A DNA stretch of 64,000 nt from Escherichia phage fDHCT2: the sequence record OR427838.1, one strand, 5' to 3'. Each line of letters begins with the position of its first letter. Positions within the stretch are counted from its first letter, which is position 1. The notes beneath the pieces were generated by a model. The model saw only the letters and a list, made by a program, of their open reading frames with translations, was not told the DNA's origin and did no database searches. A program made the translations under genes and the position numbers. Shown here in pieces: positions 3,617 to 59,821 of the stretch.

Positions 3617-3624
3617 TATTTATA
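3617..3624 (-). promoter_or_regulatory. Late-promoter-like TATAAATA motif upstream of nrdA
   Basis: Exact TATAAATA on minus strand, about 60 nt upstream of nrdA ATG. Confidence 0.3.
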
Positions 3625-3974
3625 GGTCTTCTAATGAGAACGTATCTTTGAAAAGTTTGTTAACAACCAGGGCTATCACATCCCCATGACAGTCCTTAGG
3701 TTTACAGGTACACGCTATTCGCATACCTCTAAGGGTTTCAAGGTGTTCTCTTTTAATTTCACCTGATTTTATTTTAGCAATAAAGTATTCTTTAAAGTTC
3801 TTGATGTTTTCCTCACGAGTCCCATCTTTAAATGGATTACCCCACATAGTTCCACGTTGGATGTTTACATCAAAATCTTCTTTATACTTGTTAACAACTC
3901 TACAGACTCTCATTATAGCACCAAATTCAGTCCGACCATAATAACCAAAAACAGAGTACAGATTATTTGAATTT

Positions 3975-5658
<1,684 letters not shown>

Positions 5659-32262: not shown

Positions 32263-32466
32263 TCAATTCAGGTTACGTTTAAAAAGGTCTGCTACTTCAA
32301 GGAGCTCGTCCTTAGTAGCGATGTCGTTGAGTATTTTATATCTGATTTCTTTAAAGCGTTCTTTAAAATCCTCAGCTGCATTGATATCAAAAAATCGTTG
32401 GATTAACCGGAATTCTTTATGGACGGCTTTATCGAACAAATCAATATTCACTTTAAAGTTTGTCAT
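32263..32466 (-). CDS. Hypothetical small protein
   Basis: 67-aa ORF upstream of rIIA. Confidence 0.45.
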   Translation of the reverse strand: MTNFKVNIDLFDKAVHKEFRLIQRFFDINAAEDFKERFKEIRYKILNDIATKDELLEVADLFKRNLN

Positions 32467-32803
32467 TTTTAACTACCTCATGTTGAACATATTCTCTGGT
32501 AGAACCGAGTTCAGCCAGAATTCTTCTCATAGAACCCATTGTACTTTTGTGCTCTCTGTGGCGATACAATATCTCCAGAACCTTTTCCTGGACAACAGGA
32601 GAGAGCGCCTGGTTATCTTTAATCTTTAAGGCAATAGATTTTACAGCCTTAAGATATTCTAGCCCCTTACCGCTTGTAATCACTACTCCTTCATCTTTAC
32701 AGTTACGAATAGCGGTTTCCATAAAGGATAAAGCCAGGTTGTCAGTGTTCACTATACTGTTATCTTGCATAATCATATTCTCACCTCTAGATAATCCTAT
32801 CAC
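32453..32803 (-). CDS. Hypothetical protein
   Basis: 116-aa ORF. Confidence 0.45.
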   Translation of the reverse strand: MIGLSRGENMIMQDNSIVNTDNLALSFMETAIRNCKDEGVVITSGKGLEYLKAVKSIALKIKDNQALSPVVQEKVLEILYRHREHKSTMGSMRRILAELGSTREYVQHEVVKNDKL

Positions 32804-32829
32804 AGTTTTGTTATGTTGTAAACCCCGAA

Positions 32830-32847
32830 AAGGGCCTTGCGGCCCTT
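32830..32847 (-). terminator. Stem-loop/terminator downstream of gene 39 region
   Basis: AAGGGCC-GCAA-GGCCCUU hairpin. Confidence 0.45.
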
Positions 32848-32852
32848 AATTA

Positions 32853-33002
32853 TTCAATTTTGTAGACTTGTCCTCGAACTTGATAAAATTCGCCTTCCCA
32901 GGTTTCTACCATAATGGTCACATACTCTGCGAACAAAGGTCTCTTCTCGGCCCAGAGATATCCAAATTCACCGGTGGCTAGCGTTATCCAGTACTTTCTC
33001 AT
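32853..33002 (-). CDS. Putative 49-aa protein (not in ORF track)
   Basis: Perfect AGGAGA SD 5 nt before ATG at 33002; between gene 39 and a hairpin terminator. Confidence 0.3.
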
Positions 33003-33045
33003 AAAGTCTCCTAATTGTATGGCACTCATGTACCATACATATTTA

Positions 33046-44448: not shown

Positions 44449-44970
44449 TTAATAACCTCGGTCTTGACGAGCAAAGTTCTCGGCATTTTTCAGATAATAC
44501 AGTTTAAAGATTTCTTCAGCAGTCAGACCAAGACCTTGGAACATATTCAGAACAAAGTGCAGAATATCAATCATTTCGAATTTAATTTCGAGCTGGTCTT
44601 CAGGAGAGAGTTCGTCAATACGACGATTACGGAATTCGGCATGTTGTGCCTTCCACGGCTTCCACACACTGGATGCGGCTTTCTCACCATTACTCATACC
44701 GCCAAGAGAAGTCAGAAGTTCACGGAATTCATCATCAATATAATCTTTCTGGTTGCGAAGCCAATCAACAACTTGACCTGCTGTAGCTAGTTCATCAGGA
44801 TTGGTGTTGAATTCTGATTTTTCAGTAGCCAAACGAACCTGTAATGATTTCTGCATATCAAGCATAACCTGCAGAGGGTCTTTATCTTCGTGAATCAGAG
44901 CATTAAAATAAGCTTCTTCAGCTTTATCAACACCTGCAATAAGTTGTGAGCATTCGTTAAAGTGTGCCAT
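44449..44970 (-). CDS. 56: dCTP pyrophosphatase gp56 (MazG-like)
   Basis: Start refined to ATG 44970; size and position as T4 gene 56. Confidence 0.7.
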   Translation of the reverse strand: MAHFNECSQLIAGVDKAEEAYFNALIHEDKDPLQVMLDMQKSLQVRLATEKSEFNTNPDELATAGQVVDWLRNQKDYIDDEFRELLTSLGGMSNGEKAASSVWKPWKAQHAEFRNRRIDELSPEDQLEIKFEMIDILHFVLNMFQGLGLTAEEIFKLYYLKNAENFARQDRGY

Positions 44971-51788: not shown

Positions 51789-51840
51789 TATATTTTTCCA
51801 TAGGCATCATTATATTTTACTCACGTTTTAAGATAGGGTA

Positions 51841-51869
51841 ATTATATCACTTCACATTTACAGCGTTAA
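51841..51869 (-). promoter_or_regulatory. Candidate promoter for uvsX (extended -10 TGATATAAT)
   Basis: TTAACG-N17-TATAAT; downstream box resembles the early-element box (TTACCCTATC). Confidence 0.35.
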
Positions 51870-52759
51870 AGGACCACGTCCTCATAACTTGGCATTTCGT
51901 GCTCAGAATGGATATGGGCGCCGAAATAAATGAATTCAGCTAGACCAGGATGGAATACTAAACCTGGGTTCTCATGATAAATGATATGAGGTCTTGATTT
52001 CAGAATCTGATAATATTCAACCTTACTTGGTTTGAATTTAATAATCTCTACATCAGGACGATAGTCTTCACGCTTAAATGAATCATTCGGGTCGGTGATA
52101 TAAAGACGAGCACCTTCAGCCGCAGCTTGGTCTACAACTCTTTCGAATTGATAACACTTATCCGAAATACGGAATGGGTGGAAAATACCATCAATTTTAA
52201 TAGGCGCTAGACCTTCAGAGTAACGCTCAATTACTGCCGGATTAATTACCTTTTGGTCTACAAAAATCTTATCAGAGGACGCACCTCGTGACACCAGGAC
52301 GTCTTTCTGACATTGGTTCAAGACTGTAGTATAAATCGAACGTTCAACTGAAGACACGTCGGTATCAATAAACTCATCGATGTAATAACGAGGAACTTCA
52401 GGGTCCATTGTAATGTTAAAGTTGAATTGTACAGTCTGAGCACCATCATAACCAGTGATATCGGTTACTAATCCCGAGCAGTCATAGTATTCGATTAACG
52501 AATCAACGACAAACTCATTTTCGGACCAAAAATGTTTACGGGTCTCATAAGCATTTTCTTTATACCAAAGCGGCACGAAATTCAGTTCAGGAAATAATTC
52601 AATACATTCTTTGATATCGCTCGAATTTCTAGGATAAGCCAGATAATCACCTGGGCAAGCACGGTTTAAATGGAGTTGGAAATTACCGTCCTTAAGGACG
52701 GCATATTCACCTGTTTCGTAACTACGCATACTGAAAATAGGAACGATAAACAAACTCAT
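51866..52759 (-). CDS. Uncharacterised protein at the locus where T4 encodes beta-glucosyltransferase
   Basis: 297 aa; no motif I can assign; ATGA overlap with gene 42 homolog. Confidence 0.5.
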   Translation of the reverse strand: MSLFIVPIFSMRSYETGEYAVLKDGNFQLHLNRACPGDYLAYPRNSSDIKECIELFPELNFVPLWYKENAYETRKHFWSENEFVVDSLIEYYDCSGLVTDITGYDGAQTVQFNFNITMDPEVPRYYIDEFIDTDVSSVERSIYTTVLNQCQKDVLVSRGASSDKIFVDQKVINPAVIERYSEGLAPIKIDGIFHPFRISDKCYQFERVVDQAAAEGARLYITDPNDSFKREDYRPDVEIIKFKPSKVEYYQILKSRPHIIYHENPGLVFHPGLAEFIYFGAHIHSEHEMPSYEDVVL

Positions 52760-53454
52760 TTCAGGAATCCTCGAACGTAGTCAAAATCACGTTCAAATAC
52801 GTGTGCACTAACCATAGTATGGGAATACGTACCCAGACCAACACCACACTGTTCAGCAATAAAGGCCATCAGTTTACCCTGCAGATAGAAATCCAGCTGC
52901 ATAACGATAGCACAGTTCTGTGAACGCATATGAGTATGTGCATACAGACGTCCATCACGAATATAATATGTTACCGAATCGGTACATGGATATTCTAGGG
53001 ATTCGTCAGAATCAAGGAGGGCTTGGTCTTGTTCTTGGAGAATTTGGAACACAACTCGTCTCGAGTTAGGCTTTTCTTTAAGCTCTTTAAGTAGGGCTGG
53101 GAGTTGGGCCACAATTCGAGGTCCATAGAAAGTGTTGAAGTTTGCAGGCAATACGTCACTTTTCGGCTTATCAATGAACTTAGCAACATTAGGGTATTCC
53201 TTAAATGCTTCGGCAGCGTCAGTACCACCAGAAATCATAAATTTCCAAAAGGATTCGGCATATTCATAACTGATACGATTGATACGTGGGTCGGTGAATT
53301 TATAGGTGCTGGCATCCAGTACTTCTATAGAAGCAGAACCAATTTCATAACAACGTCCGATACGAGAATCAACTGCAAACTGTGGAGCTTCCAGGATTTC
53401 TTCGTTCATTTGTTTAAATGCATTTTCAAAACTAACAGCGGTAATGTGTTTCAT
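52756..53454 (-). CDS. 42: Thymidylate-synthase-fold pyrimidine hydroxymethylase/methylase, divergent gene 42 homolog
   Basis: 232 aa; blocks align to T4 dCMP hydroxymethylase: PNSRR, PCTDSVTYYIRDGRLY...MRSQN (catalytic Cys), SAHVFERDF. Confidence 0.7.
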   Translation of the reverse strand: MKHITAVSFENAFKQMNEEILEAPQFAVDSRIGRCYEIGSASIEVLDASTYKFTDPRINRISYEYAESFWKFMISGGTDAAEAFKEYPNVAKFIDKPKSDVLPANFNTFYGPRIVAQLPALLKELKEKPNSRRVVFQILQEQDQALLDSDESLEYPCTDSVTYYIRDGRLYAHTHMRSQNCAIVMQLDFYLQGKLMAFIAEQCGVGLGTYSHTMVSAHVFERDFDYVRGFLK

Positions 53455-53987
53455 TTATTCACCTTATTTTCAATATATTCGTTCAGACGTTTTAATTCTA
53501 CCATATCAACATTAAGCAAATTATTATGGCCGTCATGATTTAAGATTTTAAACACGTTTTCAAAACATGTTTCGTATTGCTGGATAGTTAGGTTGAACTC
53601 ATCTTTGGTTAATTTAATAAGGTCATCTTCGAAGTCTTCATCTAATGGATTACGGGTTAAAATAACCTCGATAACGTTAAATTCGGATTTAAACCCTTTC
53701 CAATCTTCCAGTTCTACATAAGGGTCCATTTCACCACGAAGGAATCCTGAGTAAACAATATTACTTGGATAACCACGGTCAAGGATGTAAACGAAATTAG
53801 GGTCTAAAAACTTATACAACGTCTCGACTAAAGCCTTATCATTATCAGTTCCTAATGAAATACACTTGCCATTAATCTTTTTAGGAAAATCAATAAGGCG
53901 GTATTTCTTATTGGATAACAGATTTTTAATTAAAGTGGACTTCCCGGAATTATCTGGGCCGTCTATAACAATGATTTTTGGATTCAT
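53451..53987 (-). CDS. P-loop nucleotide/nucleoside kinase (thymidylate-kinase-like)
   Basis: 178 aa; N-terminal IVIDGPDNSGKSTL Walker A. Confidence 0.55.
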   Translation of the reverse strand: MNPKIIVIDGPDNSGKSTLIKNLLSNKKYRLIDFPKKINGKCISLGTDNDKALVETLYKFLDPNFVYILDRGYPSNIVYSGFLRGEMDPYVELEDWKGFKSEFNVIEVILTRNPLDEDFEDDLIKLTKDEFNLTIQQYETCFENVFKILNHDGHNNLLNVDMVELKRLNEYIENKVNK

Positions 53988-54367
53988 GGATGATAGGCCT
54001 TATAACTATCAAGAGTTCCTTCACGAACCAATTCTTTAAAGTGGTCTGGACGGATTGCTCGGTCATCGATGATAAAAGTATAACTCGGCTTGTGTGTAAG
54101 CAAATTGTGATATTTCAATCCAATTTTTTCAAGGTTCTTAACCAATGCAGGAACTACTTCAACCAAGATTCGACCTGGGCCACATGAAGTCATGCCACGG
54201 GCAGTGAATAATGTAATCTCGTACCCTTCATCATAAAGCTTATTAATCATGGACACCATTTCGGTGTCCGGTTTAAAGTTCTCATAATCACGGTCATGGT
54301 TCCAAATCGTGATTGTGTTATCGATATCAAAACATAAATGTGGTTTATTTTCTACTCGATGCGACAT
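53984..54367 (-). CDS. HAD-superfamily phosphatase
   Basis: HAD motif I FDIDNT near N-terminus; start refined to ATG 54367 (TAATG overlap); alternative start 54382. Confidence 0.55.
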   Translation of the reverse strand: MSHRVENKPHLCFDIDNTITIWNHDRDYENFKPDTEMVSMINKLYDEGYEITLFTARGMTSCGPGRILVEVVPALVKNLEKIGLKYHNLLTHKPSYTFIIDDRAIRPDHFKELVREGTLDSYKAYHP

Positions 54368-56040
54368 TAAATTTTCTTCCATTGTTTGTGGAGTTCAGTA
54401 GAACCTGTAGGTTTATATTTTACACCAGTTTCCTGGTCAAGCAAAACCCACTTATCAGGACAACGAGTAATAATTTGAGCCGTGATAGGGTCACGAACTT
54501 CATCGACAAATTCACCAGTAATAAGCTTACGCTTACGAGGATGCCGCTTCAGCAGCACACTCAGTTGGTACAAACCGTTATAATAAGCACCCAGAGCTTT
54601 CAGAGGGTTATTCTTAAAGTAACCTGCCAGCGCCATCCAAATAACAGCAATCCAGAGCTTGTGCTTAAATGTGCACATAGGAATATCGTCTAAAGGCATA
54701 ACCTTTTCAATATCAACGAATACACGAGTTCCATTACGAGTTAATCCACCCCATAGAGGGTCTGAGTTAAATTTGTCATAGCCATCGATAGAATAAAGCA
54801 CCTTAGCTTCATCATAAATCGCAGGGCCTTTAGAACTATTACCGAAATAACCACGTGGGTCGATGATTTTAATATCACCTTCGTCCGACAGCATAATATT
54901 ACTGTAGTGCGGGTCACCATGAATAAGTTGGTACGGTTCTTTATGTTCAGACAGAATTTCTAATGCATGGCGGAGAAGTTTTTCAGGGTCGCCTACTTTG
55001 AAATCGTTGACATGGGTAATGCCCTGTGGAGCAAAGCCTTCAATCAATCCGGCAATAGAAGCATTACGAATAAGGACCTTGTCCAATACTTCTTTCTTAA
55101 CATCGGAATACCATTGTTCATCGGACGGATTATCAATAGTTCCACCAAATGAACGTAATGCACTAATGACCTTATAAACCATGAGGACTTTAGTTTCTTT
55201 GGACATAAACCGGTAGGCATCTGCCATGGTCCGACCAAAGATACGTTCCATTTTAATGAATTCGCCTGGAGAAAAGTCTACAATGCTAGGAACGAATTCA
55301 GAATCAATAGAATTATACCAATTGATTTCTTTAGATTGAATTTCTTTACCTAAATCGTTAGTTGGTACTTTAATAGCCAGATTCTCAGTGAACTCTAATT
55401 TATTAAATTCACGGTTAATTTCAGAATCTTCATGGGCCTTAGCCAGTTTCAATTTGTCACCGACATCAACCACAAAGTCCAGCTTACGTTCAGTCAAATG
55501 GACCATCGAATCCAGGTTGTCTGCAAGGTCTTCGCCATAATTAGAACGGTCGAAACCTGTCCAATTAGCCACCTGATACAAACCAACCACACCACCGCCA
55601 GTACCAATTTCACGCAAGTACGGTTCTTCAAATGTAAAACGACAGTCGGTCCCATAGGTATAACAGTAGTCGTTATCCCACTCAACTTTATGACCTTCAG
55701 GAATAATATCACACCAGTTAAACAAGACATTATGCCCAATGATATCTTCAGCAATGCAATCGATAGCATGAGCTGAACCATTAGCAACATCAACGTTACG
55801 AATAGTGAATTTAGGCTTATCACCAGTAATCATGTTAATGGATTTGATATAGCCTTTAACGAGGTCGTTAAATTTGCTGTGAATAACCAGAATAATTTCA
55901 TCTGATTGGTTACTATACAAATCATACAAATGCTTTAATACCGTATGTTGTTTGTAGTTAACCAATACCTTCGGGATTTCGTTAGTAATTGGATACAACC
56001 GTGAGCCAAGACCCGCGCCTAAAATAACAACCTTTTTCAT
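54367..56040 (-). CDS. Bifunctional sugar-1-phosphate nucleotidyltransferase (N-terminal) / sugar kinase (C-terminal)
   Basis: Start refined to ATG 56040 (GAGGAA SD); N-terminus ILGAGLGSRLYPITNEIPKVLV; C-terminal HGDPHYSNIML...IKIIDPRG Brenner-type kinase motif. Confidence 0.6.
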   Translation of the reverse strand: MKKVVILGAGLGSRLYPITNEIPKVLVNYKQHTVLKHLYDLYSNQSDEIILVIHSKFNDLVKGYIKSINMITGDKPKFTIRNVDVANGSAHAIDCIAEDIIGHNVLFNWCDIIPEGHKVEWDNDYCYTYGTDCRFTFEEPYLREIGTGGGVVGLYQVANWTGFDRSNYGEDLADNLDSMVHLTERKLDFVVDVGDKLKLAKAHEDSEINREFNKLEFTENLAIKVPTNDLGKEIQSKEINWYNSIDSEFVPSIVDFSPGEFIKMERIFGRTMADAYRFMSKETKVLMVYKVISALRSFGGTIDNPSDEQWYSDVKKEVLDKVLIRNASIAGLIEGFAPQGITHVNDFKVGDPEKLLRHALEILSEHKEPYQLIHGDPHYSNIMLSDEGDIKIIDPRGYFGNSSKGPAIYDEAKVLYSIDGYDKFNSDPLWGGLTRNGTRVFVDIEKVMPLDDIPMCTFKHKLWIAVIWMALAGYFKNNPLKALGAYYNGLYQLSVLLKRHPRKRKLITGEFVDEVRDPITAQIITRCPDKWVLLDQETGVKYKPTGSTELHKQWKKI

Positions 56041-56068
56041 TATCTGTTCCTCAAGTGAATGTAGGTAC

Positions 56069-56100
56069 ATTATACACTATTTTTAATAAATTGGTATTGC
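56069..56100 (-). promoter_or_regulatory. Candidate extended -10 promoter upstream of nucleotidyltransferase-kinase gene
   Basis: TGTATAAT on minus strand; weak -35. Confidence 0.3.
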
Positions 56101-56601
56101 TTAAATCTTATCTTTACCGATTTCAATACACTGTTCTATTGCCGCCGGTACTTTGGTCTTGAGCTTATCGATTTGTTTCTTATAATCACGAGCTTTACCG
56201 AAGCTCTCGGTTTCGAGCATTTCGTAATAACGAGCCTCGTGGATGGAAATCTGTAGATTGATATGGTTTACGCACATCGCATACAGTTTCTGCTTTTTGT
56301 ACAAATCATCTTGACGCTTCATTTCTGCCTGGTGTTTGGCTAGTACCGCTTCACGCTTAGACTCTTGTTCACGTTGGAATTCGATTTCCCTTTGAGCATA
56401 TTTTGCACAGTTATTACCGCATTGATTATTAGCTCGGGTATACACAAGTCCGGAACCAGCACGGAATTTCATTTCGCCATCGAATTGTTTCTGTTCAGCT
56501 GCGATACGAGCTTTACCAACTTCATCAGCCGAAACTGCATCGCCATATTGGACCGCGCAACCTGATAGGAGCATACTCATTGCGATAATTAACTTTTTCA
56601 T
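56101..56601 (-). CDS. Putative lipoprotein
   Basis: 166 aa; signal peptide with lipobox LLSGC; GAGGA SD. Confidence 0.55.
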   Translation of the reverse strand: MKKLIIAMSMLLSGCAVQYGDAVSADEVGKARIAAEQKQFDGEMKFRAGSGLVYTRANNQCGNNCAKYAQREIEFQREQESKREAVLAKHQAEMKRQDDLYKKQKLYAMCVNHINLQISIHEARYYEMLETESFGKARDYKKQIDKLKTKVPAAIEQCIEIGKDKI

Positions 56602-57041: not shown

Positions 57042-59753
57042 TTAAAAGTCGAACATATCAAATAATGTTGCTTTTTTCTCGTAGTCGATTTTAGCAGACT
57101 CAGTAAAACCAGTCAGAGGCTTGATAAAGGTCTTTTGGAACAGTACGTTGTAGTCCATCCAACGGAGGACTTGGTCACGAATCTGAATCGGAAGTTCAAT
57201 ACCTGACGGCCACGCCATACAAGCTTCACCAAAAGGGTTGCCTTCTTTAAGCGGCAGCACATATACCTTTTCACCATCAACGATACGAGGCATGGTCAAA
57301 TCACCTGCAGAAGCACGCATGTAAGCTAAGCAACCTTTGATGTGATACGGACATTTAGAACCAGGGAAACCGCCTTCATTATATTTCTCGATGTTGTTAG
57401 CACTGGATACTGCAGCAATGCTTACATAGTTTAGTTCGTTAAATTCCTTATTAAACTGTTTGAAATACTCTTGCAAAGAGGCCTCGCCTTCTTGAAGCAT
57501 ACGACGGATACATTCTTTCAGTGCTTTCTGAACTGCTTTAGGTGTACTTGATTTCTGGGTTTCGAGGCCCATGATTTTCAAGTGTGGTTCGGCATAACGA
57601 GTACCTTCCATGTCCCAAACGTTCAGTGCATAACGTTTCTTGCCTGTCCAGAATCCACCAAGACCTTTAGAACCAAGTGGAGGACCAGCGATAGCTTCTC
57701 GGTCCATGAACATCAAGTGCTGTTTATTGTTCATGTATTCGCACATCTCACGGAAGCCTGCATCAATAGCCGGTTCCATACGTTCACGTGCAAATTTATC
57801 TAAGAAATCAACCCAGTGGTTAGTATCACGGAATTTATCTTCGCCTACTTTATTGATGATTGCGTCAGCCTTAACATAAATGGAGTCAGTATCACCATAG
57901 AGCACGAACTTCTGGTTTTCAGTCTTGCACACACCATTCAGATATTCGTTAACCTTACGTTCAATCCATTGGAGGGCCATTTGACCAAACAATGTGATTG
58001 CAGTCGCGTTCCTGAGGTCATAGTAACGGAACCATACGTTACCAAGTGCACCATAAAGGGAGTTGATAAGCAACTTACGGTTAATCTGAGCAGTCATACC
58101 TGCGACTTCAGTACGTTCGGCTTTGAACAACATTTCTTTTAAAGAAGATGCTGACAATTTTTTAATCTGAGCTTTGATTTCGTCAGAGAAGTCGAAACGA
58201 TAATCGATATCCAGTGGGCTATCAACAGACGGATTAGGATTTTCTAATGCTTCCTTAATTAACTCACCATTACGTTGAGCTGCAAGCATATAACCTTTAT
58301 GTTCTTTACGCTGTAAGAACACCTTCGTGATTTCTGTAGGAATCACGCCATCACGGTCTTTATAGTACATCATGCCGTTAGGAGAGCAACTGTAGGTGTC
58401 GCTAGGACGCGGAGCAGTTCCGGCAATATATTCATGTATCGGTGCGTTAGCGAATGTCCCTGCGATGGTCTCTGGGCTTATATTCACTTGTCGAATGATA
58501 CTCGGGTACAGAGATGTAAGGTCGAAACTCATTACATATTTGTACGCGTTAGGAATAGGTTCCTTAACGAAAGCACCTGGATAAGGTTGAACCGCATGCG
58601 ATTTGGCCTGAGGAATAACTTTACCCTGTTCTTTAAGGCTATTAAAGATAATAGCGTCCCAAGTCTTAATTGGACTGAACACCGACTGAATCTGCATCTT
58701 GGCATAGTAACCCATGTCCAGACTAAGAAGAATGAACTGGCGTTTCATATCAATCTGCACAACACGATATACGTCGATAATGTTATAGGAAATATATCGT
58801 TGGTGGTTCGTCTCACGTAACTTGGAGATAGGACCATCATATTTCAACTTACCTACTTTCAATTCATATTCAGAAACATAATCCAGAGAATAAGAAGGCT
58901 GGTTGGTAAAGCTGAATTTTTTATAAAGGTCGATATAATCCAGAACAGAGATACCGAACAGTGTAATAATTTCACGAACACCGTACATATTCTCGATAAC
59001 TTTAACACGAGTCTTACGATGCGGGCTTAATCGCTTAGCAGTGTTCTCACCAAACAGATTTTTCAGACGGTTATAAACGTATGGCACGTCAAATGATTCA
59101 ACGTTCCATCCAGTCAAAATCACAGGAGTTTTCTGTTGCCAGAAATTCAGATACTCAAGCATCATTTCTTCTTCAGAATTAAACGGAAGATAAACGATTT
59201 TGTCAATGATTTCTTGTGGAACTTCGTCACCACCTTCGTCTTGGAGTTTCTCAGCGATTTTAATCGACCACTCTTCGACCGTACCATAAGGTGAAACTAA
59301 AAGGTCAAATACATAGAATTTATCATCAATCGAGTCGTAGTGAGTAATGGCATCGATAGGATGTTTAGCCTGAGCAGGTTCAGGGAATCCATCAGGGGAT
59401 GTTACCTCGATGTCGAAGTTAGCAATACGAATCTTGGAAGAATCATACTTGATTTCTTTACGATAGGTATCAGACAAATAGGCTAATTTATAGTCGTCCA
59501 TACCAAGGGCTTCGAGACCCATATCGTCCATGCGCTTCATCCACTGAGAAGCATCGCGCATTGAATTGAATTCTTTCTTAACACAGCCCTTACCGTAGAT
59601 GTCAATATATTTTACGGCTTGCTCTGGGTTAGCATGCATAAACATTGTAGGCTTGTATGGAACTTCACGACTACGTTCGTTACCATTTTTATCGATGTAA
59701 CGTTCGAGAATATTATCACCGATTTGTTCGACTGTCAAATAGAATTCTTGCAT
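57042..59753 (-). CDS. 43: DNA polymerase gp43 (family B)
   Basis: Start refined to ATG 59753 (MQEFYLTVEQIG); 903 aa; exo motifs FDIEV, polymerase motif YGDTDS; very similar to remembered RB69 gp43. Confidence 0.95.
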   Translation of the reverse strand: MQEFYLTVEQIGDNILERYIDKNGNERSREVPYKPTMFMHANPEQAVKYIDIYGKGCVKKEFNSMRDASQWMKRMDDMGLEALGMDDYKLAYLSDTYRKEIKYDSSKIRIANFDIEVTSPDGFPEPAQAKHPIDAITHYDSIDDKFYVFDLLVSPYGTVEEWSIKIAEKLQDEGGDEVPQEIIDKIVYLPFNSEEEMMLEYLNFWQQKTPVILTGWNVESFDVPYVYNRLKNLFGENTAKRLSPHRKTRVKVIENMYGVREIITLFGISVLDYIDLYKKFSFTNQPSYSLDYVSEYELKVGKLKYDGPISKLRETNHQRYISYNIIDVYRVVQIDMKRQFILLSLDMGYYAKMQIQSVFSPIKTWDAIIFNSLKEQGKVIPQAKSHAVQPYPGAFVKEPIPNAYKYVMSFDLTSLYPSIIRQVNISPETIAGTFANAPIHEYIAGTAPRPSDTYSCSPNGMMYYKDRDGVIPTEITKVFLQRKEHKGYMLAAQRNGELIKEALENPNPSVDSPLDIDYRFDFSDEIKAQIKKLSASSLKEMLFKAERTEVAGMTAQINRKLLINSLYGALGNVWFRYYDLRNATAITLFGQMALQWIERKVNEYLNGVCKTENQKFVLYGDTDSIYVKADAIINKVGEDKFRDTNHWVDFLDKFARERMEPAIDAGFREMCEYMNNKQHLMFMDREAIAGPPLGSKGLGGFWTGKKRYALNVWDMEGTRYAEPHLKIMGLETQKSSTPKAVQKALKECIRRMLQEGEASLQEYFKQFNKEFNELNYVSIAAVSSANNIEKYNEGGFPGSKCPYHIKGCLAYMRASAGDLTMPRIVDGEKVYVLPLKEGNPFGEACMAWPSGIELPIQIRDQVLRWMDYNVLFQKTFIKPLTGFTESAKIDYEKKATLFDMFDF

Positions 59754-59821
59754 TTCATTTCCTTTATAGACGAGTGATTGTCTTTTGTTTGTTGATGAAT
59801 CATTATACTCCAAAAAGGGAC

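Follow-up and report, generated by a model that had tools for sequence, protein, structure and literature searches.

A predicted flavin-dependent 5-hydroxy-2'-deoxycytidylate synthase at the gene 42 locus of the Dhakavirus Escherichia phage fDHCT2

The gene that Escherichia phage fDHCT2 carries in the position of T4 gene 42 very probably encodes a 5-hydroxy-2'-deoxycytidylate (5hodCMP) synthase, an enzyme with the thymidylate synthase (TS) fold that would employ a flavin instead of folate and hydroxylate C5 of dCMP with an oxygen taken from O2. It was found in a stretch of 64,000 nucleotides (sequence record OR427838.1), referred to as the window below, which derives from a T4-like coliphage of the genus Dhakavirus and is JS98-like: the region 51800-56100 shows 96.3-96.5% nucleotide identity to JS98, JS10, EcWhh-1 and related records. 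The open reading frame (ORF) in question is the ortholog of JS98 orf39 (Table 1). The enzyme family is already known (it was described, assayed and crystallized in 2025-2026), and since Dhakaviruses are already named as carriers in the literature, the finding itself counts as known as well.

The activity of the window protein is deduced from orthology, at about 80% identity, and from a complete match to the residue signature of the family. RB69 gp48 and gp80 of Acinetobacter phage DLP3 make 5-hydroxy-dCMP from dCMP, and not 5-hydroxymethyl-dCMP (Lee et al., Nucleic Acids Res 2026; PMC13326640). The new oxygen in the resulting 5-hydroxy-deoxycytidine (5hodC) comes from 18O2, both purified proteins are yellow and release flavin mononucleotide (FMN), and the DNA of RB69 and DLP3 bears arabinose on cytosine C5 via that oxygen (PMC13326640). 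When studied alongside T4 gp42, the orthologs were shown to make 5hodC and not 5-hydroxymethyl-deoxycytidine (5hmdC), and nine further natural homologs with the D169N exchange, together with gp216 of Rhizobium phage RL38J1, all yielded 5hodC in vivo (PMC13326640). A flavin-containing crystal structure and the reconstituted reaction are available for the homolog of phage HY126 (He et al., Nat Chem Biol 2026, as reported in PMC13326640), and Dhakaviruses are listed among the genera that carry the syntenic gene cluster (PMC13326640). An independent 2026 paper confirms the presence of 5-O-arabinosyl-dC in a Mosigvirus; for RB69, it regards the hydroxymethyl group assigned earlier as erroneous.

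Based on tblastn, the window protein is 79.7% identical to the HY126 enzyme and 79.2% identical to RB69 gp48 (NP_861738) over 231 of its 232 residues, lacking the six-residue N-terminal extension (MGKHNT) of these two, and 71.6% identical to the homolog of Acinetobacter phage Lazarus. Identity is about 31-32.5% to RL38J1 gp216, the experimentally verified 5hodCMP synthase of the Pootjesviridae, which has extra insertions. With tblastn, the gene is recovered from 427 phage records, in 51 of which the identity reaches at least 95%, and the homologs in phages of Escherichia, Klebsiella, Enterobacter, Proteus and Acinetobacter show 68-99% sequence conservation. The matches in the PDB are sharply bimodal. 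Three entries that bear no label other than "Thymidylate synthase" (9IQU, 9IQC and 9IR2) match residues 1-231 with E 3e-126, the second of them being 100% identical to the HY126 ORF (XAN60475), whose sequence 9IR2 has as well, and are followed by the CMP hydroxymethylase MilA with E 2e-14 (57 bits, residues 5-226), by ordinary thymidylate synthases with 30-43 bits and, below these, by T4 dCMP hydroxymethylase (1B49) with 29 bits (phmmer). The initial annotation of the ORF had taken it for a gene 42 homolog with one-carbon chemistry; this part has to be given up in favor of the chemistry of the RB69 and HY126 orthologs, which hydroxylate C5 of dCMP from O2 and bind flavin (PMC13326640).

Numbered by E. 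coli ThyA, the signature published for the family consists of N177D (cytosine specificity), L143E or L143D, and the diagnostic D169N (PMC13326640). We aligned eight sequences with MAFFT, namely the window protein, the HY126 enzyme, RB69 gp48, the Lazarus homolog, RL38J1 gp216, T4 gp42, the canonical thymidylate synthase of the window (td) and E. coli ThyA, whose reference sequence was checked to be 100% identical to PDB 1AOB. As the residue mapping gives Cys148, Asp179 and Glu60 of T4 gp42 their textbook numbers, the alignment is regarded as valid. The catalytic C146 of ThyA corresponds to Cys157 in the window protein (C148 in T4 gp42), L143 to Glu154, N177 to Asp188, which marks cytosine specificity, and D169 to Asn180 within the motif MRSQN, the published diagnostic of hydroxylation. 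Gln179, Val184 and Thr158 stand for ThyA C168, G173 and H147, and both tryptophans of the folate site are lost, W80 being replaced by Ala91 and W83 by Ile94 (Phe in RL38J1). The residues mapped to ThyA 80, 143, 146, 168, 169, 173 and 177 are the same in all five sequences of the hydroxylase clade, so that even the distant gp216 shares E, C, Q, N, V and D at the last six of these positions. Asn at position 169 is found in the window protein, HY126, RB69, Lazarus and RL38J1, versus Asp in T4 gp42, td, ThyA and MilA; position 173 is Val in the same five and Gly in the same four. For all 12 ThyA residues that PMC13326640 lists as lying no more than 6 Å from C5, the window protein has the same amino acid at the equivalent position as the assayed enzymes of RB69 and HY126.

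The window protein stops directly after the last core helix (SAHVFERDFDYVRGFLK) and has no counterpart of the last ~40 residues of ThyA; as the alignment shows, it lacks the C-terminal segment that closes over folate in thymidylate synthases. Residues that bind the nucleotide are conserved, including Tyr110, His218 and the four that bind the phosphate (Arg132, Arg133, Arg177, Ser178). The protein thus combines the TS fold and catalytic Cys with Asn at 169, Asp at 177, an acidic residue at 143, close similarity to verified members over nearly the full length and a genomic setting that includes a DNA glycosyltransferase, genes of NDP-sugar synthesis and a dCTPase, all of which characterize a 5hodCMP synthase. 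Asp188, Asn180, Glu154 and the missing folate-closing segment separate it from canonical thymidylate synthases. The initial annotation had held that substrate and chemistry could not be read from the sequence, and had proposed a comparison of the base-discriminating residues. That comparison returns Asp188 at ThyA N177, and the reservation itself is outdated, as Asp188 indicates cytosine and Asn180 is the published hydroxylation diagnostic.

The alternative that survives best, although we consider it very improbable, is a diverged but functional dCMP hydroxymethylase of the T4 type (gp42), which would form 5-hydroxymethyl-dCMP from methylene-tetrahydrofolate (methylene-THF), in line with the 2010 annotation of JS98. 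The ORF occupies the T4 gene 42 locus, between uvsX and gene 43 and with a glycosyltransferase adjoining; Petrov et al. 2010 listed JS98 with a gene 42 allele, its modification being an open question then, and several GenBank records call the orthologs dCMP hydroxymethylase. The motifs quoted in the initial annotation are present as described and align in blocks with T4 gp42: PNSRR (residues 129-133), YPCTDSV (155-161), MRSQN (176-180) and SAHVFERDF (216-224) have NPDSRR, FMCTNTV, MRSND and SLHVYSRHF as their counterparts. The TS fold that it had named was recovered too, through Pfam (PF00303, Thymidylat_synt, E 4.4e-14), whose match covers residues 114-229 only (profile positions 108-220 of 266). 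The window protein further shares with T4 gp42 (PDB 1B5E/1B49) the catalytic Cys, the Asp at ThyA 177 on which the choice of dCMP depends, an acidic residue at 143, a truncated C-terminus and, by its predicted role, the supply of a modified dNMP that replaces dCMP. Yet Cys157 and Asp188, which match T4 Cys148 and Asp179, are common to the hydroxylase branch as well and therefore do not discriminate between the two.

What does discriminate speaks against gp42. The window protein is shorter (232 versus 246 aa) and strongly diverged, as had been noticed initially, with 25% identity over 159 residues (BLASTP against gp42 from NC_000866, E 6e-12). Its closest similarity lies elsewhere, gp42 ranking below MilA and several ordinary thymidylate synthases in bit score, and the folate core of the T4 enzyme (D171/G175/W82) is replaced by Asn180/Val184/Ala91. 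Orthologs with 79-80% identity gave 5hodC rather than 5hmdC beside T4 gp42 (PMC13326640), and the sugar in RB69 DNA sits on an oxygen bonded directly to C5. By orthology, the window protein would thus use flavin and O2 where gp42 uses methylene-THF, and would release a 5-hydroxy instead of a 5-hydroxymethyl product. Specificity residues and alignment agree in setting the protein apart from an ordinary dCMP hydroxymethylase of the T4 type with average divergence, in keeping with the divergence suspected in the initial annotation.

Another folate-dependent pyrimidine C5 transferase, such as a dCMP methylase, a dUMP hydroxymethylase or a MilA-like CMP hydroxymethylase, appears less probable still. 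The TS fold and the catalytic Cys would suit such an enzyme, and MilA (mildiomycin biosynthesis, PDB 5JNH/5B6D) is the best PDB match outside the clade, aligns over nearly the full length and resembles the window protein in its Asp at ThyA 177 and its acidic residue at 143. Asp188 speaks against uracil substrates, however, and Glu154 against a methylase, and MilA retains Asp169 and Gly173 where the window protein has Asn and Val. MilA is moreover a folate-dependent enzyme of bacterial secondary metabolism that acts on a ribonucleotide, whereas the window gene lies in the context of DNA precursor synthesis and DNA glycosylation, with a dCTPase, and not in a nucleoside antibiotic cluster. The least probable reading, a catalytically dead gene 42 relic kept for a structural role (e.g., in the dNTP synthetase complex), could appeal to the Pfam match being restricted to the C-terminal half and to an N-terminal half and folate-site residues unlike those of thymidylate synthases, but is opposed by the conserved catalytic Cys and nucleotide-binding residues, by the sequence conservation across phages of five host genera and 427 records, and by the activity of the orthologous enzymes (PMC13326640).

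Several points weigh against the assignment as a 5hodCMP synthase or narrow its reach. The function is transferred through orthology and a signature derived from roughly twelve enzymes that have been assayed. In place of Tyr209, the residue by which ThyA contacts the 3'-OH, the window protein has Phe220, and the verified enzymes of RB69 and HY126 have Phe there too. The tie of the entries 9IQC and 9IR2 to the work of He et al. follows, as far as we infer, from identity with the HY126 ORF, and the catalytic steps of the flavin proposed below are extrapolated from the chemistry of the TS family and of flavin monooxygenases. Finally, three genes of the RB69 and HY126 clusters are missing and the sugar nucleotide enzyme is only 43% identical to its counterparts, which makes the sugar step less certain than the hydroxylation.

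Public family resources do not separate this enzyme from its relatives. NCBIfam has no family-specific model, and only thymidylate synthase equivalogs match the protein, all far under their cut-offs; in PHROGs it falls in the generic thymidylate synthase family phrog_160. The GenBank and RefSeq labels of the synthase orthologs are inconsistent, ranging from hypothetical protein and thymidylate synthase to dCMP hydroxymethylase and RNA polymerase binding protein.

Table 1. Features of the window discussed in the text (positions refer to the 64,000-nucleotide stretch).
Feature	Position	Strand	Description
Predicted 5hodCMP synthase (ORF under study)	52756-53454	minus	ATG to stop, 232 aa, intact
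Predicted base-proximal DNA arabinosyltransferase on 5-hydroxycytosine, RB69 gp46:47 ortholog	51866-52759	minus	297 aa
P-loop nucleotide kinase, RB69 gp45-like	53451-53987	minus	178 aa, thymidylate-kinase fold
HAD-family sugar phosphatase, AfhF / RB69 gp51 ortholog	53984-54382	minus	132 aa
Bifunctional sugar kinase and sugar-1-phosphate nucleotidylyltransferase, AfhE / RB69 gp52:53 ortholog	54367-56070	minus	567 aa
uvsX	50607-51788		
Gene 43	57042-59813		DNA polymerase
gp56 dCTPase/dUTPase	44452-44970	minus	94.8% identical to RB69 gp56 over 173 aa, Pfam dUTPase_2
Canonical folate-dependent thymidylate synthase (td)	3975-4835	minus	286 aa, PF00303 full length, E 3.9e-98
DHFR gene	4832-5413		Adjoins td
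DUF4326 ORF	3620-4039		E 2.2e-21
166-aa ORF	56101-56601		Lipoprotein-like N-terminus

The synthase gene is the fourth of five tightly packed minus-strand genes that lie between gene 43 and uvsX, each overlapping the next by 4-16 nt (Table 1). Its start codon forms an ATGA overlap with the stop of the upstream gene and is preceded by a Shine-Dalgarno-like AAGGTG; the operon is translationally coupled. As in the RB69 and HY126 clusters, the neighbors are an arabinosyltransferase, a kinase, an AfhF-like and an AfhE-like gene, and the JS98 RefSeq notes agree with these ortholog assignments. The gene for gp56 lies ~8 kb away from the operon.

The AfhE-like protein carries the Pfam domains NTP_transferase (residues 13-110) and APH (356-427) and is 42.5% identical over its full length to a 562-aa protein of HY126. 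Its match to PHROG 4098 (E 7.5e-269) begins at residue 11, where the JS98 annotation also has its equivalent start, and translation probably begins at the ATG at 56040 and not at the first ATG at 56070. It shows 43-44% identity to the versions of Mosigviruses and Acinetobacter phages alike, as opposed to 72-80% for the adjacent synthase, an uneven divergence that could reflect module exchange or another sugar specificity. The AfhF-like protein is 63% identical to a 128-aa protein of HY126 and matches NCBIfam TIGR01689 (capsule biosynthesis phosphatase) with E 6e-15, under the curated cut-off. Orthologs of this phosphatase are widely mislabelled as phosphoheptose isomerase in public records.

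The kinase is 38-40% identical to the versions of HY126, RB69 (gp45) and Lazarus and falls in PHROG 761 (thymidylate kinase, E 6.8e-40); the JS98 annotation describes it as RB69 orf045c-like. The putative glycosyltransferase is 66.7% identical over 297 aa to a 299-aa protein of HY126 and 70% identical to RB69 gp47, and belongs to PHROG 3891. It has no Pfam match and shows no similarity to T4 beta-gt in a direct comparison with that protein only. A role as the first, base-proximal arabinosyltransferase has been proposed for gp46:47 (PMC13326640). This glycosyltransferase of the window also has a remote though significant match to RL38J1 gp215, a proposed base-proximal galactosyltransferase, with 24.5% identity over 265 aa (E 9e-10), which suggests that one glycosyltransferase family serves 5-hydroxycytosine (5hoC) across unrelated phage families. 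RL38J1 resembles the window in the glycosyltransferase that adjoins its synthase, but differs in the sugars used downstream, galactose and glucose instead of arabinose.

For the reaction itself, we propose that Cys157 would add to C6 of dCMP and render C5 nucleophilic, as in every enzyme of the TS family, with Asp188 reading the N3/N4 face of cytosine. C5 would then attack the distal oxygen of a flavin C4a-hydroperoxide, the flavin being held in the remodelled former folate pocket (Asn180, Val184, Gln179, Ala91, Ile94 and a missing C-terminal lid), and 5hodCMP would be set free once the cysteine is eliminated. The pathway around this step is put together from synteny and cited biochemistry. 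Here gp56 would remove dCTP and supply dCMP to the synthase, phage and host kinases would convert 5hodCMP to 5hodCTP, and gp43 would incorporate the latter instead of dCTP. The neighboring glycosyltransferase would then add arabinofuranose from UDP-arabinofuranose made by the AfhE-like and AfhF-like enzymes. AfhE and AfhF have been reported to produce UDP-arabinofuranose from arabinose-5-phosphate, and HY126 AfhF to convert arabinose 1,5-bisphosphate to arabinose 1-phosphate (cited in PMC13326640). The end product would be DNA with O-arabinosylated 5-hydroxycytosine, resistant to restriction enzymes and CRISPR.

The cluster of the window is smaller than those of RB69 and HY126. In tblastn searches of the 64 kb window, the arabinose-5-phosphate isomerase, the 386-aa protein of HY126 (RB69 gp50) and RB69 gp3, the second arabinosyltransferase, all remained without a homolog. 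Between rIIA.1 and gene 39 (32453-33029), the site of gp3 in RB69, the window has nothing but a DUF7367 ORF (116 aa, E 4e-44) and an ORF of 59 aa. In the collection-wide tblastn, the isomerase and gp3 each match 137 "Escherichia" records, versus 176 for the synthase, and since neither shows an identity band that would fit the ~51 Dhakavirus records, both appear to be absent genome-wide in the genus. The kinase gene is also relocated: in the window it lies upstream of the synthase, after the AfhF-like gene, whereas HY126, RB69 and Lazarus have it on the downstream side of their first glycosyltransferase gene. The reduced gene set leads us to predict a single sugar, by analogy with the mono-arabinosylated phage Thanatos, which has a single transferase, and a reliance on the host enzymes KdsD/GutQ for the supply of arabinose-5-phosphate. 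We suggest only tentatively, and regard as rather unlikely, that this represents a minimal 5hoC glycosylation module, which could need arabinose-5-phosphate from the host and add one arabinose or another sugar, a state chemically undescribed for the genus. The reduced accessory gene set is a minor new point.

The separate canonical td seen in the initial annotation is indeed present (Table 1). Its residues W87, L153, C156, D179, G183 and N187 equal W80, L143, C146, D169, G173 and N177 of ThyA, and the window protein is 20% identical to it (BLASTP). It is a paralogue of the synthase and stands outside the modification pathway. A second gp42-like gene in the window was considered and rejected, the synthase ORF and td being the only TS-fold genes found. 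Directly downstream of td, between td and nrdA, lies the DUF4326 ORF, whose longest reading overlaps the 3' end of td. The 166-aa ORF between the AfhE-like gene and imm (MKKLIIAMSMLLSGC at its N-terminus) matches no Pfam family and has JS98 orf43, a hypothetical protein, as its counterpart; it may encode a superinfection-exclusion lipoprotein.

The family is remarkable in that the fold of a folate-dependent one-carbon transferase has been repurposed for pyrimidine hydroxylation with flavin and O2. Between 2018 and 2025, RB69-like phages were believed to have arabosyl-hydroxymethylcytosine; the discovery of the family overturned this view and answered a question that had stood since 2010, namely what JS98- and RB69-type phages use their "gene 42" for. 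Beyond the reduced gene set the window raises no new question, and its practical value lies in a correct annotation, which predicts O-glycosylated 5-hydroxycytosine in Dhakavirus DNA. Such a modification would bear on the sensitivity of these phages to restriction, CRISPR and type IV restriction, on the behavior of their DNA in sequencing and cloning, and on the choice of phages for therapy.

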